UHGV virus genome: UHGV-1405961
DNA from: a virus
DNA length: 37,242 nucleotides
Strand: one strand, 5' to 3'
The notes under the pieces are model-generated. The model made no database searches. It had not been told where the DNA came from and saw nothing but the letters and a program-made list of their open reading frames with translations. Made by a program: the position numbers and the translations under genes. This document shows, one piece after another, positions 241 through 20,387 of this stretch; positions within the stretch are counted from its first letter, which is position 1; each line of letters starts with the position of its first letter.

Positions 241-2184
241 TTATGCTAGAGCCATTCTGGTATTTGCGAAAGCCATCGCCTCACTTTGTGATGCAAAACT
301 TGCAACAAAATAGTCAGCCAGATATAAAACACTCTCAGAAGAGGTGGTAACATATAACGACGCAGATTCTGATGCATCAGCCTGAGCCACTCCAAATGTA
401 CTGACCCATTCACCTTGCTTGAGATGAATACCACCCAAAGTGACCCCCCCTGTAATCCTCATATTCATATCACCTGAATTAAGTCTGGCATTGATACCCC
501 ACACATACCACAAGCCCTTGGTGATGGTGAAATTGGAGTCAGTTAATTCCAGAACAGCGTTAGCAGGGAATGTAAACGATTCGCAATTTTTTGAATGAAG
601 CCCCATACCTACTAAGGACCCTGTTACACTAGCATTCCCCCCCCATGTATGAGTTCCGCTATCAAAAGGTATTGCTGCTAACTTATTACCCGATGGAAGA
701 TTAAACAATCTACCTTTTGTAATAGAACCCCTCAAACACAGGTCAATGGTGTGAATCTTACCCGTCTGTGAAGCTATACTCTCAACAATAACATCTTTAC
801 CAGAAGAACCATTAAGATAAGTATCATAGGATTTAATAGTACTATCAGCATCTATCTCTATATTCTGATTTCCATCAGCATTATCGAAACGACAGCCATA
901 TGTTACAAGGTTTGACCGTTCTAATTTTATGCTGTTTATGTATGAATATTCAGCATAGAAAATGCTTGTGTCAATTAAATGTAAAGTTCTTGGTTCTATA
1001 GCAGCACCATCAACGTTTACTGCATCAGCGGTGGCTACAGCTTCAAACCAAACATTGGATATACCACATGGTGCAGATGGGCAATCCCCAGGCTTATTCT
1101 TAAGGTATATCCCCCCCCCTGCCGATCCTTCTATAATGGAGTCTTTTAACCACCAACCACCGATACCACCACCTGTAGATGATGCCCCTATCGTTGCATT
1201 CAGATAAACAGCATAAGTGCCAATACTGTTCATATGGAAGTTATACAGAGTGTCTGCTCCACAGTGCATCTCTGTACCACTGATGGCGTGATATCCCCAG
1301 TCACAATTGTTAATACCTATACTACGAAAAGTATTACCAATATTTCCAGAAGGTTTAGAAATTGCTTTATTAATGTGATGGATGTAGGTATCGCTTATAT
1401 TGTGACGACCCGAGTACTGGTCCGTAGGGTCATAACCAAAACCGACAGAACCAGTTGTACCGGTTCCGTCTATTTCAAAATTAGAACTATGCCTGAACTG
1501 CCAGTGCGGTGTTGATAATTTTGCCATCACGGCCGTTGAGAAATCACCCTGTGGTTTTATTACAACCGACCCCCCAACTCCTTTTAGTTGCGCATTACCT
1601 AGTGTTACATTCTCAGTATAAACACCAGGAGAAACCAGCAGGTCATTTTTTGGTAAAGAGGAATCTATGGCTTCTTGTAATGTTGAAAAATCTTTTGAAT
1701 GCCTAATATCATTAATATGATCAAGCAAAGTTCTTTCACCGCTACCTATATTCTTAGAGCCATCACTTGCTTGAAGGGCGGATCTGCTTTGCGCATCATC
1801 AACCAGATTCAAACCACCAGGAGCTGCGAGATCTTGCCTTAGTTGATCAGGGTCGTACTTAAGCACATTTGGATAATAAAACTGCTGCGCACCATACGCG
1901 TCATACACAGTCATAGAATGGCCTTGTACGGTAACAAACTTTGCAATTTGCCCGTTGTATACCGGATATCCAGCAGCGTTAATGATGATTGGTTGCGAAA
2001 CAGGAACGTGAGATCCGTCTTCGTTCTCCACATAAACCTGAATCTGGTTTTCAGGATTTACCGGGTCAGTGTCAATTTTACCGATATAAATTTTGCCATT
2101 GGCTACGGCTTTAAAAGAACGCGCCATAGTGAAGAGTTGCGAAGGCATACTCACTACAACATTGGCATTTATTGAATCTGTCAT
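241..2184 (-). CDS. Tailspike protein (P22 gp9-like N-terminal head-binding domain; divergent beta-helix receptor-binding domain)
   Basis: 647-aa ORF. First ~110 aa ([12 protein letters not shown]...[11 protein letters not shown]...[12 protein letters not shown]...NVLKYDPDQ) match the conserved P22-family head-binding domain; the remainder is Gly/Ser/Asn-rich, typical of a beta-helix. Last gene of the late operon; GGAG Shine-Dalgarno 8 nt upstream. Confidence 0.85.
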
Positions 2185-2284: not shown

Positions 2285-3163
2285 TCAGTAGTTATGTACT
2301 GAAGGAGGTAATTCTTTATTCTTAAGTCTCATCCATGCGGAAAGATTCGCTGGTCCGTCTGGCTCATTGATATCAACATCTCGTGTGTGATTGATTAAAA
2401 CGTCTCTCGCCATTCCGATAACATACGAGAATTCATGACCGTAGTCGTAGCATCTGCCGGAATAGTTCGATTGAACTTGTTTTAATGCCGGATACAGTTC
2501 GCGGAATAATGCCTGTGAACGGTTAGCATAATCCCATAGCCATACAAGGCTGTTTGCTTCTTTTGCAGAAAGCTCGTTTGCTTTCTTCTCTTGTTTGCCG
2601 ATAAACTCGCCTTCAAGCACTACCCTGTGGATGTACTCTACGGCCAGCGGGATTTGTTCAATTGAAAGTTCATCAATGCTGTCAATACCAAAACGCTGAT
2701 GAACCATATTGTATGCATCGTCATAGCGAAGTCCTTTCTTTCCTACCAGCATGTTTACTGCATCGCGTAGCGGCGTTCTTTCCTCAACAGTGGTTTTCTT
2801 GCCTTTCACATACTCGCCATGTTTGCGAATTGAAGGTAGAACTTCTGCTGTTACCCACTTGCGGAATTTGTGCGGGACCGAACCTTTATTGACAGCATCG
2901 CGGCAGCGCAGAACCAATGTATACATACCTGATTCGCTAACAATGCTTAGATTCTGCTCACCACCAAGGGTGTAACTTAAAGTTACTCCCTTTTCATCGT
3001 CATCAAGTGCAGTAAGCGCCTTGCGTGAGTTAGTCAGGGTTAAAGCATCACAAACATCTTTTGCTACAAACCACGGCTCACCGCATTTGTTGATGACGCG
3101 GATTTCACTGTCGCCGAATTTGAAGATGGTGAAATCGTTTTGTGCCTTTGCTATACTTTTCAT
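2285..3163 (-). CDS. ant: Antirepressor Ant (Bro-N/KilA-N-like N-terminal domain), immI region
   Basis: ORF downstream of arc in a P22-type immI arrangement; motif [26 protein letters not shown]. Start set at ATG 3163 (292 aa); the ORF track extends to an upstream TTG at 3229. Confidence 0.7.
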
Positions 3164-3231
3164 GTCAATATTTCCTAATCCGATTTGTTGATACCGAAGC
3201 CCTGACTGTTCCCGCAGTTGGGGCTTCAACT

Positions 3232-3483: not shown

Positions 3484-3735
3484 ATGGCTAGAGATGATCC
3501 GCACTTTAACTTCCGTATGCCTATGGAAGTAAGGGAGAAATTAAAATTCAGGGCGAAGGCGAATGGGAGATCAATGAACTCCGAGTTGTTACAAATCGTC
3601 CAAGATGCTCTATCAAAACCATCGCCTGTGACTGGATATCGCGACGATGCAGAACGACTCGCTGATGAGCAGTCAGAGCTTGTTAAGAAGATGGTGTTTG
3701 ATACGCTGAAGTATTTGTACAAAAAACCCACCTGA
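3484..3735 (+). CDS. mnt: Mnt repressor (maintenance of lysogeny, represses ant)
   Basis: 83-aa product MARDDPHFNFRMPMEVREKLKFRAKANGRSMNSELLQIVQDALSKP..., near-identical to P22 Mnt as recalled; divergent from arc. Confidence 0.85.
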   Translation: MARDDPHFNFRMPMEVREKLKFRAKANGRSMNSELLQIVQDALSKPSPVTGYRDDAERLADEQSELVKKMVFDTLKYLYKKPT

Positions 3736-3745
3736 AGGTGGGTCC
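3721..3745. terminator. Bidirectional rho-independent terminator (strong on the minus strand)
   Basis: AAAAAA-CCCACCTGAAGGTGGG-TCCTATTTATT. The hairpin contains the mnt stop codon and gives a U6 tail on the minus strand after the lipoprotein gene. Confidence 0.6.
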
Positions 3746-3751
3746 TATTTA

Positions 3752-4171
3752 TTAGTCTTGCTTTGTTGATGGTATAAGAGATGCGTTTGCCTCTTTTGGC
3801 TTCAAGGTATACATCCCACCATTAAAAGGATCTACAGCAAGCCAACCAATTAACCCACCAAACACAAGGTTTCCACCAATATACCAACCATTAGCATTGG
3901 CTTTGATTGGCAGGGTAACTGGTTCGTACCCATCCTTTTCCATAGTGATCTGGTAGCTCTTTTTGCCAAAATAACTACCATCTGACTTGGCAAGAGTTAC
4001 TCCTTGCGGGGTCTTGCCTTGCGCAACAATCACGCCTGATTCGTCTTTTACTTTAAAGCTCGCACCGGAAGGATTGCTGTTCACTTGCACGAGCTGTGTT
4101 TCGTCACCAACAATAGTTGCGCACCCAGATAACAATATAGCGCCAGCAACAACGCCGATAATCCTCTTCAT
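3752..4171 (-). CDS. Putative lipoprotein with PEGA-like domain (moron in the P22 sieA slot)
   Basis: 139 aa from ATG 4169-4171. Signal peptide with lipobox (MKRIIGVVAGAILLSGC); motif NPSGASFKV..GKTPQGVTL..YQITMEKDGYEPVTL resembles PEGA domains; Gly/Trp-rich C-terminus. Confidence 0.6.
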   Translation of the reverse strand: MKRIIGVVAGAILLSGCATIVGDETQLVQVNSNPSGASFKVKDESGVIVAQGKTPQGVTLAKSDGSYFGKKSYQITMEKDGYEPVTLPIKANANGWYIGGNLVFGGLIGWLAVDPFNGGMYTLKPKEANASLIPSTKQD

Positions 4172-4289
4172 ATCAATTTCCATATTTGAAAAAACCGGAA
4201 ACATCCTAATGACAAACCATTCAAATGTGAAGTAGGCAAAAGATGTTTACTTTTTTCATGGTATCCTGCTCAAAACTAAGGAGGTTGGT

Positions 4290-4613
4290 GTGTATACAAC
4301 AGTTATCGTGATAGCTATCGCACTCATTGTGGTTCAGTACCAACTGGCATCTTTAAAACAAAAGATATCTGACCTCAAGACTGAGAACGAAGCACTTAAA
4401 AACTCAATAAAAGATGAGAAGAACAAACTATCATTCACTATATCTGATATTGAGCAATCCATTGAAATTATTGAGAATAATATTAACAGACTAAAAAAAG
4501 AAGATATTCATGAAATCAATGACAATATCAAGGATTTGAAATCTTGGCTTAGGAATGTAGGACAAATCGCCACATCAACACGAGATAAGCTCAATCCATC
4601 CATGGATGATTAA
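4290..4613 (+). CDS. Hypothetical small membrane protein (N-terminal TM helix plus coiled coil), AT-rich moron
   Basis: GTG start 5 nt after AAGGAGG; 107 aa; hydrophobic N-terminus YTTVIVIAIALIVVQY then heptad-like K/E/N/I-rich sequence. Markedly AT-rich relative to flanks; divergent from the lipoprotein gene and convergent with the gp16-like gene. Confidence 0.55.
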   Translation: MYTTVIVIAIALIVVQYQLASLKQKISDLKTENEALKNSIKDEKNKLSFTISDIEQSIEIIENNINRLKKEDIHEINDNIKDLKSWLRNVGQIATSTRDKLNPSMDD

Positions 4614-6773
4614 TTACTCCTGTGCTATTCCGCTTAGCGACGCTACAATGCCAGCCCTCGCTAAGCGATTGAACTCTTCGTTTCCAACTGCATCACGTAT
4701 TGCTTTTACGGCGGCTTTATTTGCCATAAATCTGCGTTCCGCCGCCGCTAATGCTTCTTTACTTCCGCCAGCTCTTACTGCTTTCGTGGCTTCCTGAACT
4801 GCTTTCTCTATCGCATATCGACCGCTACGCGTGGTGGCAATTTTAGATACAGCACCTTTTAACCCGGCGCCAACTAAAGCACCTACGGCCGCGCCTGCAA
4901 TGCCCCCACCTGCTCCACCAACAATGGCACCCGACGTTGAGTTTGCAATTGCATTTAATACTGTTGAGGTAACGTTGGATAAACCAGCGTCAAGATCACG
5001 TAGAACATTGGCTGTTCTCCCTGTTCTTTCAATATACTGCTGAGGCTTCACTGCCGCTCTTGCAAGAGTGCCATATGCATCAGCAATTCTTCCAAGTTCT
5101 GAGGAATATCTGCTAATGGCTTTTACATTTTGTGGGGTAAGTATCCCTGCGATATGGTTAATTCCTGCTGCATCAGATTTGCCACCACGTACACCATGCG
5201 AGATAGCATCCTGCAACATTGATGATATAGCAGGAACACGCTCTGATTCTGGCAGCGCGCGGATCATAGAATGGAATCCAGCAGGACCATTAAGACCTTT
5301 AGCTGACGATGATTGAAGAGATTTTACTCCATTCGTAATCAGTGCATCTGTTGCCAAATCACGCCCAAAAACAGACTCTGCACTCTCTTGTGCGGATAGC
5401 CTCGCTTTAGACAGATCATTAGCTTTTTGCCAGTCATCAAGAAATCCGCCGTTTTCCGCCATTGTGCGCATATCATCAGTAATTGCCCGGCGTATTTCCC
5501 CTGCTCTCCTTGCCGCATTTGCCTCTCCGCTACGCTTATATTTTTGCTCAGCATCAGCAAATTTCGCTCTCCATGCTTTCATGCCATCAAATGTTACTCC
5601 ACCTTGATTGTTTGCCTGAACAAACTGTTTCATTTCAGGAGTAAGCGGTATGCCAGCAGATCGCTCTGCCTGAATAACGGCATTACCATTTAGCATTCTT
5701 GCTTTTTGATTTGGCATTGTTGACCGCACGTCATCCCATGCCGCGCGCTCGGCATCCTTCATCTGATCAAGATTTTGAAGAATCCTTTGTTTTATAGCCG
5801 CACTTTTTTCTGATGCCGTTCCAGATGCGGCCCCAAATTCATCAAGGTTTCGACTTAACTTTGATGATATTTCGTTAAATGCTGCCTGATGGGCATCCTG
5901 AACAATTCCTGGTGTTGATGCCAATGCGCCTTCGGCTTGTGCAATTCCACGACTTCCAGATCGCATTCCTGGTGTTAATGCGTTTATATCAATTCCAGCA
6001 GACTCAGCCGCTTTTGCTACATCTTCGGACACATTAGCGGCCTGACTGGCAATTGACTGACGCCCAGCACCTGACTTTGCCATCCTAGAAACATCATTAG
6101 CAGAATTCAGTGCTGCACCACCAAGAGCCTGTGAAACTCTTGGCGCAATAACGCGCCCGACACCTGAAAGAACGCCTTGAGCACCAATATTGATACCACC
6201 GTTAATGGCAGCATTTTGTGCAAAGTCGCCCTCCTGATTTGCAGCATCAGCAAGAGAACCTGCAATCATGTTTCCTGCGGAACCGATATCTCCAGCGAGC
6301 TTTGCTGTCGCTCCAACAGCTTTTGCCGCTGTGCCAATTGGCAGGAGATACCCACCAATTGTTTCACCGGCTTGTGCGTAAGGGTCTGTCGGTCGATCGA
6401 CAGGGCGATAAACATCATCCAAAACCTTGGGGCCACCAAGCCCCTGACTGATTGCATTAATCAGACTTGCGCCACCCTGCAATACGTCAAATGGTATGTT
6501 TACCAGACCACGACCAGCCTGTTCTGCAATTTGCCCTGCACTTTGACCACCAGTGAGCCAATCGCCAGCTTGTTGCATCAATGATGGTTCTTCTTTCTGC
6601 TGCTGAGGCGGAGGGTATGCTGCATAAAACTGATCTCTTGCTTCAGCCCATTTGTCACCAGCCTTAGGGGCAACAACCTCATCAAAATATTGCGCTTGAG
6701 CCTGTGCTTTCTGTTCTTCAGTTAACGCCTGATACTGTGGAGAGGCGATAACATCTTTCCATGCTTTAGCCAT
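4614..6773 (-). CDS. DNA ejection (internal virion) protein, P22 gp16-like
   Basis: 719-aa Ala/Gly/Gln-rich ORF, last of the gp7/gp20/gp16 trio by synteny; start overlaps the upstream stop. Confidence 0.65.
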
Positions 6774-10022: not shown

Positions 10023-11440
10023 TACTCAATCCTTATCTGAGCGCCAGACAGAGTGACAGGTGACTTCGTGATAACGCGCAATTTGAAACCAATGTTTTTC
10101 CTGATGCGCCCTACTTTCTTCCACAAAACGCGTTTGTCGTAAACGAACGGTTCATTCTGCTCAATCATCTGCTCACGTCCGTAATTGATGCCGTCAGTGG
10201 TTGCCGATAGGAACAGGCGGTCAGCGTACTGCGCAACGCCAGTTGAAGATTCAACCTCAAAGTCGAAAACTCTGGCGTTATCCGCTTTGAACAACGGAGT
10301 AAACAGCAGGTGTTCCTGTTGCTTGTCGTACTGGCTGCTGATGTCGAACTGCAATTTCCCGGTCACGGATTCCAGCTTATCGCCGCACGTTATCTGATTG
10401 CCTTCGTAAATGAAGTCGATAGCGCGGTACACATCGTCATACAGGCCTGTTTTCAACACACACCATTGCGGACCATTGGCGCTTGAAGATGCGTCGTAAA
10501 CAAGAACATGGCGCGGCAGGTGAATAATCAGCAACTCATGAGCATCAAACCGCAACGATTCCATCACGCCATCAGCCAGTTCATCAGCAGTGTAGGAGCG
10601 TAGTATTTTCTCAATGCTCGCGCTGGCGATTGGTGATACCTGACCGGAGCCGATGATATATACAGACGGCGCACCTGTTGCCGGATTGCTGATGAACGCA
10701 TAAGAATCAGCGAATGGCGTTTTGCAGTAAGTCCCGGCAATGCCTTTCTGCACCATCAGCGATGGCTGTGCGACATACAGAGCAGCACCAACGGTGGTTG
10801 CACCAGTCAGGGAGAAATATTCAATCGTCGATGAACCAAAGCAGACGATGAAGTCTCGCCATGTTCCGATGCCGATGATGCCGTCAGGCTGCGATTCTGC
10901 GCGATATTGTGCGCTGTATCGGTCAGGATGTGATTCGTCTTCAAGGTCAGTGATAAACCATGAATCAGTTCCGTCTTTTGACCACGCATAACGCCCACGT
11001 AAGCGCGTAATGTCACGAACCGAACCTAACTCATACTGCGTAAAACCGCTGTCTGTAGGCCAGTTTGAGACGGTTTTAACCGTGCCATCATAGCGATACT
11101 CGACCAGTTGACCATTAACGCCTACTGCCTGTGATGTCCTACCGTGTGCCATTGATACGCGACCACTTCCGGCAACATCACCGACCTCGCTTTCTCCTTT
11201 GTACAGCTTGCCACCACATACGCGATAAACAGCATTCTGCGCCATGTTGTACTCGACGCCGCGCGATACGCCGTTTACATCAGAGCGTTTGGCAATGCCC
11301 GGGAATGAGCGAAGATATCCGCTGCTGTTGAGGATTTCTTTGGGTGTAGCCAGCATATTCACTGGCAGATAGTCGATATAGTCGGCGTTTCGAAAGTCTT
11401 TGCCGACACCTTTCATAAGCGGAAGTTGCTGAATCGGCAT
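10022..11440 (-). CDS. Tail accessory (head-completion) protein, P22 gp10-like
   Basis: 472-aa ORF, the same length as P22 gp10, in the syntenic position between gp4 and gp26 homologs. Confidence 0.7.
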
Positions 11441-19158: not shown

Positions 19159-19620
19159 TCATTTCAGGCACTGCGTGTTGATATATTCCTGCAAGTAGTT
19201 AACCTGCGCGGTTATCTTGTCGATTCCACTTCGGAGACGGTAATAATTGAGTTCAGCATCTGCTGTAAGTCTTGGGCTTTCTCCATCGCCCATGCTGCTG
19301 GCTCCGGTCGTTGACTTTGCACAGGTGGCGGCGACTTGCAGGCGCTTACGACCAGCAGAAACATCAGCACGGAGACTTTCGATAGTCGCGTTAGCATCAG
19401 CAAGCTCCTTTGTATATCTGGCATCGAGTTCTGCTACGTCACGTTGACGCTTCTGCATATCAGAGATCGTCGCCATAGCCGAATCTAATGCCATAGCGTT
19501 TTCGTCGCGCTGTTTTTTGTATTCAATGGCTTTATTGTGGTAATGATTAGCTGACCAGACGAGAGAACCGAATAAAGTCAGGAGGAAAGCAGAAATAACC
19601 AGCTTATAGCGAAGTTTCAT
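19159..19620 (-). CDS. Rz: Spanin, inner-membrane subunit (Rz)
   Basis: 153 aa from ATG 19618-19620; N-terminal TM helix ([17 protein letters not shown]), coiled coil, C-terminal YINTQC; lambda Rz-like and immediately downstream of R. Confidence 0.8.
   Translation of the reverse strand: MKLRYKLVISAFLLTLFGSLVWSANHYHNKAIEYKKQRDENAMALDSAMATISDMQKRQRDVAELDARYTKELADANATIESLRADVSAGRKRLQVAATCAKSTTGASSMGDGESPRLTADAELNYYRLRSGIDKITAQVNYLQEYINTQCLK
19212..19397 (-). CDS. Rz1: Spanin, outer-membrane lipoprotein subunit (Rz1), embedded in Rz in the +1 frame
   Basis: 61 aa, MLTRLSKVSVLMFLLVVSACKSPPPVQSQRPEPAAW...; lipobox and Pro-rich segment, fully nested within Rz. Confidence 0.7.
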   Translation of the reverse strand: MLTRLSKVSVLMFLLVVSACKSPPPVQSQRPEPAAWAMEKAQDLQQMLNSIITVSEVESTR

Positions 19621-20080
19621 TAACCACCCCGCCAGCTTCTTTGAATTTGGCAATCAGACTATCGATCTTGTGTTCATACTGACCGTAGCCAGCACCGGGC
19701 AATGAAGCCCAAATATTGCTGCAACGATCAATAGCCTGACGAATATCACCCCGATCAATCATCGGTAAAGCGCCACGTTCTTTAATCTGCTGCAATGCCA
19801 CTGCGTCCTGGCTTTTGGGGGAGAAGTCTTTCAGGCCAAGCTGCTTACGATAGGAATCCCACCAACGGGAAAGAAGCTGGTAGCGCCCGGCGGCTGTTGA
19901 TTTGAGTTTGGGGTTTAGCGTGACAAGTTTGCGAGGGTGATCGGAGTAATCAGTGAATAGCTCTCCGCCAACAATGACGTCATAACCATGATTTCTGGTT
20001 TTCTGACGTCCGTCATCAGTTCCCTCTGACCACGCCAGCATATCGAGGAACGCCTTACGTTGATTATTGATTTCCACCAT
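19604..20080 (-). CDS. R: Endolysin (lambda R-type lytic transglycosylase)
   Basis: 158 aa, [61 protein letters not shown]...; near-identical to lambda R as recalled. Confidence 0.9.
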
Positions 20081-20387
20081 CTTCTACTCCGGCTTTTTTA
20101 GCAGCGAAGCGTTTGATAAGCGAACCAATCGAGTCAGTACCGATGTAGCCGATGAACACGCTCGTTATATAAGCGAGATTGCTACTTAGTCCGGCGAAGT
20201 CGAGAAGGTCACGAATGAACCAGGCGATAATGGCGCACATCGTTGCGTCGATTACTGTTTTTGTAAACGCACCGCCATTATATCTGCCGCGAAGGTACGC
20301 CATTGCAAACGCAAGGATTGCCCCGATGCCTTGTTCCTTTGCCGCGAGAATGGCGGCTAACAGGTCATGTTTTTCTGGCATCTTCAT
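20064..20387 (-). CDS. S: Holin (lambda S-type, class I) with dual-start MKM motif
   Basis: 107 aa, [67 protein letters not shown]...; near-identical to lambda S as recalled. The upstream DNA is also lambda-like. Confidence 0.9.

Follow-up and report, generated by a model that had tools for sequence, protein, structure and literature searches.

Organization of the locus

UHGV virus genome UHGV-1405961 (37,242 nucleotides; the whole of this stretch is referred to below as the window) is a mosaic CUS-3-like Lederbergvirus (P22-type) prophage of Escherichia coli, with its late operon on the minus strand. In E. coli and Salmonella, P22-like prophages rank with the most common ones. We describe two genes that lie head to head between the gene 16 homolog and mnt of the window: a lipoprotein gene encoding 139 amino acids (aa) with the lipobox LLSGC (3752–4171, minus strand; open reading frame (ORF) assigned to phrog_6823), and a homolog of hkcB encoding 107 aa from a GTG start (4290–4613, plus strand; ORF assigned to phrog_5962). 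They are separated by a divergent spacer of 118 bp (4172–4289; GC 0.339) which, according to a scan and to comparison with other loci, holds both promoter-like elements. Coordinates, orientation and spacer agree with an earlier note on this DNA, in which a model that saw only the letters and their ORFs had taken both genes for accessory cargo; their place, between gene 16 and mnt, is indeed in a variable region.

The flanking features are the gene 16 homolog, which encodes an ejection protein (4614–6773, minus strand; phrog_770 ‘DNA transfer protein’, E = 1e-229), and, on the other side, a bidirectional intrinsic terminator (3719–3745, both strands; stem at 3726–3743), identified by scan, by folding and from the annotation of Salmonella phage epsilon34. 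The terminator is followed by mnt (3484–3735, plus strand; Pfam Arc and Repressor_Mnt), after which arc and ant are placed on the minus strand from the gene order of the late operon. The 3′ end of gene 16, comprising its stop and last 72 codons and ending in LSGIAQE, occupies 4614–4832 (minus strand), as delimited by comparison of loci.

The lipoprotein gene and hkcB are two portable moron cassettes with the 118-bp spacer as a common control region. The first runs from 4231 to 3719 on the minus strand and consists of promoter, lipoprotein gene and terminator; the second runs from 4256 to 4613 on the plus strand and consists of a leader and hkcB. Both are located in the interval between gene 16 and gene 9 that was named the ‘ant moron’ in the epsilon34 genome paper, where ten versions of it were distinguished in sixteen genomes (PMC2629481).

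Family membership and previous records

A 1.5-kb region around the two genes is 97.5% identical at the DNA level to epsilon34 (EU570103), with the same gene order and orientation. The tailspike of the window (241–2184, minus strand) differs from that of epsilon34; the region that holds the two genes shows no structural difference. In epsilon34, the lipoprotein corresponds to gene 15 and the 107-aa protein to gene 14, both of which are annotated as ‘conserved hypothetical protein’ and were recorded in 2008 as being of unknown function (PMC2629481). Gene 14 is annotated as similar to hkcB of HK620, which is already present in the genome record of that phage, and hkcB homologs also occur in CUS-3 and SEN22. 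HkcB of the window matches phrog_5962 over its full length (residues 1–107, E = 1.4e-58) and is 99% identical to epsilon34 gp14, 97% to CUS-3 HkcB, and 56% to HK620 HkcB. The lipoprotein matches phrog_6823 over its full length (E = 6e-86), including the lipobox and a glycine motif, and is 100% identical to GALLYPH_14 (LF82_139) of the LF82 prophage Gally.

In the records and papers searched, neither gene has been given a function, and both PHROGs are listed as of unknown function. Searches of both proteins against Pfam, NCBIfam, and PADLOC returned nothing over threshold; no published papers naming the protein accessions or PHROG identifiers were found, and a search of the literature for ‘hkcB’ and ‘ant moron’ recovered only the epsilon34 genome paper. 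Both genes are thus already catalogued, and in kind they are prophage envelope-protein morons in a known hot-spot; further dark-matter cargo at such a site is unsurprising. Three points are new here: that the lipoprotein is a moron of a very large, unnamed family, expressed in the lysogen under strong regulation; that the promoter/leader cassettes are portable; and the junction between hkcB and the C-terminus of the gene 16 protein (gp16), which is the most striking regularity of hkcB.

Independent assortment of the two genes

The lipoprotein gene and hkcB are separate, swappable cassettes and not a two-gene system. Among 5426 complete E. coli genomes, the lipoprotein gene was found in 126 (~2%) and hkcB in 155 (~3%), and the whole 878-bp pair in 10. 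In 78 IMG/VR loci that share the gp16 C-terminus of the window, both genes are present in 11, hkcB only in 39, the lipoprotein gene only in 6, and neither in 22, so that the two show no association (odds ratio 1.03, p = 1.0). Phages Gally and vB_EcoP-720R6 carry the lipoprotein gene without hkcB; CUS-3, SEN22, and HK620 carry hkcB without the lipoprotein gene. In a Salmonella locus (L023), a lipoprotein 99% identical to that of the window is combined with an HkcB that is only 60% identical. These counts do not uphold the earlier note's treatment of the genes as a pair.

The same note had placed both genes in the slot of the superinfection exclusion gene sieA. This is correct for the 107-aa gene, in position as well as in orientation, but not for the lipoprotein gene, which is associated with the mnt side and travels with mnt; hkcB alone is in the true sieA position. 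Nor is sieA the normal content of the slot, as the note had supposed, because it is present in only 22 of 66 P22-like phages (PMC10883804).

The lipoprotein and its family

The signal peptide of the lipoprotein ends at LLSG/C17, with Ala at position +2; the earlier note had likewise called the protein a lipoprotein. Under the Lol sorting rule, Ala at +2 specifies an outer-membrane type lipoprotein. The protein is therefore of the outer-membrane sorting type, and from these features we infer an outer-membrane location. Of the possible starts at 4204, 4183, and 4171, the ATG at 4171 is taken as the start codon, since homologs begin with MKK or MKR and a conserved −10 hexamer occupies 4208–4203.

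The AlphaFold2 (AF2) model of the lipoprotein (mean predicted local distance difference test score (pLDDT) 77) contains a β-sandwich at residues 25–93 (pLDDT 83–95 in most ten-residue blocks, and 79 for residues 61–70), a pair of short helices at residues 95–112 that are of low confidence, and two strands (about residues 121–131) that rejoin the sandwich after the helices. The low-confidence helices overlap the most conserved motif of the family, an insert at residues 94–121 (NGWYIGGN..FGGLIGW..VDPFNGGMY) that is invariant, hydrophobic, and glycine-zipper-like. We take this insert to be reminiscent of the outer-membrane lipoproteins SlyB and TraT, to which there is no hidden Markov model (HMM) match; profile searches with Pfam, PHROG, and NCBIfam detected no homology of the lipoprotein to Bor, Lom, TraT, or SlyB. 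Fold searches recovered only generic transthyretin, PEGA, and CnaB sandwiches. For PEGA (PF08308), the Pfam score is sub-threshold and the predicted fold is compatible.

A word search recovered 728 homologous clusters of the lipoprotein, and a full HMM scan recovered 5233 clusters (50% identity, E up to 1e-3), most of them bacterial. Across 42 sequences with 55–81% identity, 28 residues are invariant, including C17 and the glycine motif. The lipoprotein gene is real, given these homologous clusters, the invariant residues, and its published transcription (see below). A distant family member (P0164, 365 aa) has a C-terminal fusion to an OmpA-like eight-stranded β-barrel (Pfam E = 2e-15), which supports an outer-membrane location of the family, and other members have Pro/Ala-rich tails of 150–200 aa. 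The lipoprotein domain is a widespread module that is not represented by a family in the Pfam copy used.

The phage-borne lipoprotein clade has hosts among gut bacteria, bacteria associated with plants, and symbionts of insects and of nematodes, and a mammal-specific role is therefore unlikely. The enterobacterial clade is distributed over several unrelated kinds of temperate phage, always within virion gene clusters. The prophages concerned are HK97-like and lambda-like siphoviruses. In HK97-like prophages of E. coli, and also in Proteus prophages, the homolog is flanked by the tail chaperone gene T and the tape measure gene; in a prophage of Pseudescherichia it is flanked by tail genes I and J. 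The HK97-like E. coli prophages that carry a lipoprotein homolog (L010 and L012–L014) also have, at ~10261–11424, a Porin_1 gene inserted between tail genes M and L, so that their tail cluster contains two outer-membrane morons.

Control elements and expression of the lipoprotein cassette

The lipoprotein cassette begins with a sigma-70-type promoter (4203–4231, minus strand) with the −35 hexamer TTCACA (4231–4226), a 17-bp spacer, and the −10 hexamer TAGGAT (4208–4203). Hexamers and spacing are conserved in every context examined, even where gene 16 is directly upstream; Gally has a diverged version (TTCACG/TAAGAT), and its gene is transcribed in the lysogen. On the minus strand, the terminator reads ACCCACC-TTCA-GGTGGGT-TTTTTG and begins 8 nt past the lipoprotein stop. 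On the plus strand it follows mnt and is matched by the plus-strand scan. The RNA fold has a free energy of −14.5 kcal/mol (z = −2.96), and a Rho-independent terminator is annotated at the same place in the epsilon34 record.

The promoter, the leader and the first ~8 codons of the gene (MKRII..LLSGCAT; 4203–4231 and 4150–4171 in the window) also precede an unrelated lipoprotein of 96 aa in P22-like prophages (L046, L049, and L063, at ~2740–3105). This appears to be a promoter-plus-signal-peptide cassette that is common to different mature domains. The 96-aa protein belongs to phrog_5685, of unknown function; its identification as Cor was rejected.

Expression of the identical LF82 gene has been measured by RNA-seq of LF82 (PMC9928086, tables S1 and S4; values are log2(fpkm + 5), with fpkm denoting fragments per kilobase per million, for two replicates). 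GALLYPH_14 is low in stationary phase in lysogeny broth (LB) (6.2/4.8) and rises to 9.8/10.2 and 10.5/10.2 after 1 and 6 h in culture medium, and to 11.0/11.0 and 9.4/9.5 after 1 and 6 h in macrophages (PMC9928086). The log2 fold change between macrophages at 6 h and LB is 3.84 (q = 1.4e-31), and the adjacent gene 16 homolog of Gally is flat at 3.6–4.2 across all conditions (PMC9928086). By this published evidence, the lipoprotein gene is expressed in the lysogen, regulated, and uncoupled from the late operon.

The gene is among the most strongly macrophage- and medium-induced genes of Gally, a prophage of the Crohn's-associated strain LF82. Gally was reported to be without morons because the 5-fold LB cutoff of the LF82 authors missed GALLYPH_14 (PMC9928086). 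The lipoprotein has all the features by which morons are recognized, namely a promoter and terminator of its own, presence or absence among syntenic relatives, and expression from the prophage. Its standing as a regulated moron revises the view that Gally has none, and points to a widespread unnamed family of outer-membrane lipoproteins.

HkcB and its leader

HkcB is modeled as a single continuous helix (residues 2–101). Hydropathy over a sliding frame of 19 residues peaks at residues 4–22, which places a transmembrane (TM) segment at about residues 2–22, so that the protein consists of an N-terminal TM helix, a helix or coiled coil of ~80 residues, and a conserved C-terminal tail (W86–S104). 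The earlier note had likewise read one TM helix and a coiled coil from the sequence. No basic residue precedes the TM segment, and K23, K25, K30, and K37 follow it. Under the positive-inside rule, this distribution of charges would leave the N-terminus outside and the coiled coil in the cytoplasm (N-out/C-in), and we infer that HkcB is located in the inner membrane. A profile search of the Protein Data Bank (PDB) with HkcB recovered only generic coiled coils. A sub-threshold Pfam DivIC match and a common Q-Y motif in the TM helix raised the possibility of FtsB/DivIC mimicry, which was rejected (PF04977, 21.5 bits vs. a cutoff of 28.9; hhalign against E. coli FtsB, probability 0.9%).

The hkcB family is small (21 clusters), and every member examined is in the context of a P22-like prophage or phage. 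Protein length is 107 aa in most members and 109 aa in the HK620 type. Pairwise ratios of nonsynonymous to synonymous substitution rates (dN/dS) are 0.1–0.3 with saturated synonymous sites, from which it follows that hkcB is a real, constrained gene. Its GC content is 0.333, compared with 0.473 for the window as a whole, and only 0.3% of 324-bp segments of the window are as low; in this respect the AT-richness that the earlier note had pointed out is real. However, GC at third codon positions (GC3) is no lower in hkcB (0.343) than in gene 16 (0.318), so that the low GC reflects a coiled-coil composition rich in K, N, I, E, and D and not foreign codon usage. The interpretation of hkcB as a foreign AT-rich island is rejected because its GC3 is not below that of the neighboring genes. 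Gene 16 has an overall GC of 0.482 despite its low GC3, and overall GC is thus a poor guide to foreignness at this locus.

As the earlier note had seen, the gene has its own Shine-Dalgarno sequence; this is AAGGAGG (4278–4284), 5 nt ahead of the GTG. The start site is conserved in divergent homologs, one of which has ATG at the same position. The Shine-Dalgarno sequence is part of a portable leader of 34 nt, TCATGGTATCCTGCTCAAAACTAAGGAGGTTGGT (4256–4289, plus strand), which also contains an extended −10-like element, TGgTATCCT (4259–4267). At least 10 unrelated upstream sequences are followed by these same 34 nt (TCATGGTATCCTGCnCAAAACTAAGGAGGTTGGT) and then by the GTG of hkcB; if hkcB is instead downstream of a gene on the same strand, only the Shine-Dalgarno part of the leader is kept. 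The leader is a putative promoter. Independent expression of hkcB in the lysogen is plausible because this conserved promoter-like leader travels with the gene. The earlier note had expected both genes to be active in the lysogen; the expectation is borne out for the lipoprotein gene by the LF82 data, and for hkcB it is plausible. As a moron, hkcB has a promoter-like leader but no terminator before gene 16, and so conforms in part.

At L006 (5437–5760; E. coli HCP6S3_I2), the hkcB leader and GTG are kept ahead of a different ORF of 62 aa with two TM helices (MKKKFVNVAKCAIFIFF...). This arrangement occurs in many E. coli prophages, in which gp16 has another C-terminus. In the window, an inverted repeat of 10 bp (CGCTTAGCGA...TCGCTAAGCG, 4631–4667) is located inside the 3′ end of gene 16, just past the hkcB stop. 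As a hairpin it folds better than all 200 shuffled sequences (z = −3.06), and its 5′ arm is nearly invariant across divergent loci even at synonymous sites; none of 13 divergent sequences has a compensatory change, and the stem is mismatched in several, HK620 among them. Candidate roles for the repeat are those of a terminator for hkcB, of an RNA-stability element for it, or of a site that functions at the DNA level.

Linkage of hkcB to the C-terminal domain of gp16

The stop codon of hkcB abuts that of gene 16 (TAATTA and variants), with a spacer of zero, in 10 of 10 loci checked by hand and in 61 of 62 IMG/VR loci. The gp16 that adjoins hkcB has the same 72-aa C-terminal domain (ending in LSGIAQE) in all 10 of the former and all 62 of the latter, although gp16 of HK620 and CUS-3 are otherwise only about 26% identical (PMC10883804). 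P22 and Gally gp16 have different ends. The domain has a dN/dS of 0.02–0.12 with saturated synonymous divergence (dS). Given this saturation together with purifying selection, the domain is conserved at the protein level and its linkage to hkcB is old. Conservation of HkcB is highest in its C-terminal tail, which is encoded next to the junction with gene 16.

Elsewhere in gp16, residues 64–246 of the N-terminal part match a ‘transglycosylase’ PHROG (E = 7e-26). A hydrophobic stretch that is Gly/Ala-rich and glycine-zipper-like comes directly before the conserved 72-aa domain. The protein has no match in the Pfam copy used; related proteins carry PF26808 in precomputed tables.

Comparison with known exclusion systems

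SieA is the sole characterized cargo of the hot-spot between gene 16 and mnt. Like hkcB, P22 sieA adjoins gene 16, in the interval that ends at gene 9, in convergent orientation and with a promoter region of its own, and SieA is a small inner-membrane protein, as is predicted for HkcB. SieA acts on the C-terminal regions of gp16 and gp20 (PMC10883804), and it is to a C-terminal domain of gp16 that hkcB is linked. The SieA motif FxRYPxEAxxFNK is absent from HkcB.

For the lipoprotein, a parallel is provided by the exclusion moron of HK97, gp15, which is encoded in the slot between gene T and the tape measure gene and was the original ‘moron’ (PMC3594210). In HK97-like E. coli prophages, the gene 15 slot holds a homolog 68% identical to the lipoprotein of the window, and by definition both are self-contained morons, set in a cluster of virion genes. 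However, gp15 is a YebO-like inner-membrane protein rather than a lipoprotein and is not homologous to it, so that the slot alone is common to the two. Cor of phi80 and N15, Llp of T5, and Bor of lambda resemble the lipoprotein in being small phage lipoproteins of the outer-membrane type that are expressed independently of late genes; they differ from it in fold and in the glycine-zipper motif. A Cor-type identity was rejected because only the signal peptide aligns (phrog_1119, residues 1–20; NF047972, residues 1–30, 11.7 bits vs. a cutoff of 31).

Proposed function

Our best guess, which we put forward tentatively, is that the two genes are independent morons and that both encode lysogenic-conversion envelope proteins that guard the lysogen from incoming phages. 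We take phage exclusion to be the single most likely role for each protein, at roughly one chance in three, with HkcB as an analog of SieA in position and architecture. HkcB would be anchored in the inner membrane by its N-terminal helix, which runs into one long coiled-coil helix, and would disturb how the gp16/gp20 DNA-delivery conduit assembles or works at the inner membrane, in the manner of SieA although unrelated to it. The lipoprotein would act at an outer-membrane or periplasmic stage of phage entry. Its β-sandwich would be held close to the lipid anchor, with the glycine-zipper insert probably dipping into the outer membrane; its gene is transcribed from the repressed prophage and strongly induced under host-like conditions. 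If HkcB does exclude phages via the gp16 C-terminal domain, it would provide a second genetic handle on the step at which the ejection conduit crosses the inner membrane, and would help to explain the hypervariability of genes 16 and 20.

A more specific version, which we regard as improbable but worth stating, is that HkcB represents a second class of inner-membrane exclusion protein, unrelated to SieA, that recognizes the 72-aa domain of gp16, and that the interval between gene 16 and mnt is a plug-and-play platform of two conserved, portable promoter/leader cassettes that receive, by exchange among phages, a repertoire of small envelope proteins tuning the entry of rival phages. No fewer than three families of lipoproteins, together with three bitopic proteins and one protein with two TM helices, belong to this repertoire.

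Several observations weigh against phage exclusion. Neither protein matches any exclusion or defense model in PADLOC, Pfam, PHROG, or NCBIfam. The earlier note, too, had recognized no characterized exclusion or defense factor, and this still applies: with PADLOC, the lipoprotein had no match and HkcB drew nothing but coiled-coil noise of the SMC/Rad50 kind, and Cor models hit the signal peptide alone. BLASTP of HkcB against P22 SieA type A gave only a chance match of 18 residues (E = 0.047), and SieA has several TM helices, whereas HkcB has one TM helix and a coiled coil and is not polytopic. Of the 78 loci with this gp16 C-terminus, 28 are without hkcB, and the linkage could be merely physical. 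The slot itself supports only a weak inference, because hot-spots also hold toxin-antitoxin genes (YafO in UTI89), porins, and cytoplasmic ORFs (hkcC in HK620). The lipoprotein family is very large and mostly bacterial, which would fit a general envelope role equally well. In LB, GALLYPH_14 is only 3.3-fold over background, below the LF82 authors' moron cutoff, and its induction resembles that of Bor of the LF82 prophage Perceval, which is induced in Dulbecco's modified Eagle medium (DMEM) (PMC9928086); this would favor host adaptation over defense against phages.

This last resemblance leads to the strongest of the alternatives, which we consider less likely than not, and somewhat less likely than phage exclusion by both proteins: the lipoprotein would be a conversion factor for life in the host or for envelope stress, comparable to Bor, Lom, or PagC, that stabilizes or modifies the outer membrane and has no part in defense against phages, and hkcB would be an unrelated inner-membrane moron. 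Such a role would suit a gene that is low in LB stationary phase and at least 14-fold higher in macrophages and in culture medium, conditions under which late-gene levels do not move, and it accords with the mainly bacterial distribution of the family, with the member fused to an OmpA-like barrel, with the long Pro/Ala-rich tails of others, and with the glycine-zipper insert that recalls SlyB and TraT. It is less easily reconciled with a clade whose hosts extend to insect, plant, and nematode associates, with the consistent placement of the gene in virion or DNA-delivery clusters of three phage architectures, and with the failure to detect homology to Bor, Lom, TraT, or SlyB.

More doubtful is the main alternative for HkcB, namely that it serves the gp16 of its own phage, whether as a membrane ‘immunity’ protein or chaperone for a membrane-active gp16, or as a helper in ejection. 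This would explain why hkcB is never found apart from the 72-aa domain, even where the remainder of gp16 is so divergent; the saturated synonymous divergence and strong purifying selection of both modules, which indicate an ancient linkage, and the peak of HkcB conservation in the tail beside the junction would also be expected. However, P22 hybrids that received only genes 7, 20, and 16 of CUS-3 or HK620 give essentially normal infectious yields (PMC10883804), and, judging from their construction as described there, these hybrids would have been without hkcB. The 28 loci that have the domain without hkcB count against such a service as well. In addition, hkcB runs against the late operon, so that the late promoter cannot drive it together with gene 16.

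Two further explanations are very improbable. In the first, the lipoprotein and HkcB would form a two-component, envelope-spanning system, binding to each other across the periplasm in the manner of spanins and acting together. The layout superficially recalls an i-spanin and an o-spanin, since Rz/Rz1 likewise combine an inner-membrane coiled-coil protein with an outer-membrane lipoprotein; HkcB has weak PHROG matches to Rz-like spanins (E = 0.001–0.002), and the divergent arrangement provides common control DNA. Unlike the genes described here, Rz/Rz1 genes are located in the lysis cassette and are embedded or overlapping, and the window has a complete lysis cassette with a lambda-type Rz of its own (19159–20387), because of which the spanin resemblance is superficial. 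A spanin-like pair is rejected in view of this Rz together with the independent assortment of the genes, including the mixture of a near-identical lipoprotein with a divergent HkcB at L023. Moreover, the lipoprotein also occurs in siphovirus prophages whereas the recovered hkcB homologs are all in a P22-like context, and the coiled coil of HkcB is predicted from its charges to be cytoplasmic. The second, by which the ORFs, or one of them, would ride along at a recombination hot-spot in a state of decay or with no function, could appeal to the rapid turnover of the site and to ORFs that, although recorded in 2008 (PMC2629481) and in the HK620 record, are still without an assigned function, but can hardly be squared with the constraint on hkcB and its length fixed at 107 aa, the 28 invariant residues of the lipoprotein, the conserved control elements of both cassettes, and the strong, regulated transcription of the lipoprotein gene.

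Other cargo of the slot

In support of phage exclusion, the alternative cargo at this very slot is in every case a small envelope protein, and most of the cargo described below, neighboring genes included, is of that kind. Next to the same gp16 C-terminus, the convergent position is occupied elsewhere by a Q-rich lipoprotein of 161 aa (phrog_6067) or by a bitopic protein of 149 aa. The phrog_6067 lipoprotein gene is also stop-to-stop with gene 16, and corresponds to GALLYPH_13 in LF82, which is expressed in the lysogen and induced in macrophages (log2 6.3 to 10.3; PMC9928086). The family, of unknown function, is present at 2725–3210 in L066, L069, and L082, at 3640–4155 in L004 (Gally), and at 3182–3667 in L026. 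A 77-aa protein with two TM helices and other lipoproteins are among the further neighboring cargo, as are the gene of a YafO-family toxin and HkcC, which is cytoplasmic.

Two proteins of unknown function are encoded beside hkcB in individual loci: a 110-aa protein with an N-terminal TM helix and a coiled coil (L025, 4645–4977; phrog_8100), and a 148-aa tail-anchored coiled-coil protein (L023, 1691–2137; phrog_3556). In CUS-3 (L002, 3311–4314) and UTI89 (L170, 1475–2478), two mnt-like genes are followed by a series of genes on one strand that hkcB closes. RefSeq annotates a gene of this series as a type II toxin of the YafO family, and an ORF of 199 aa overlaps it upstream; the arrangement may be a toxin-antitoxin module in the ant moron.

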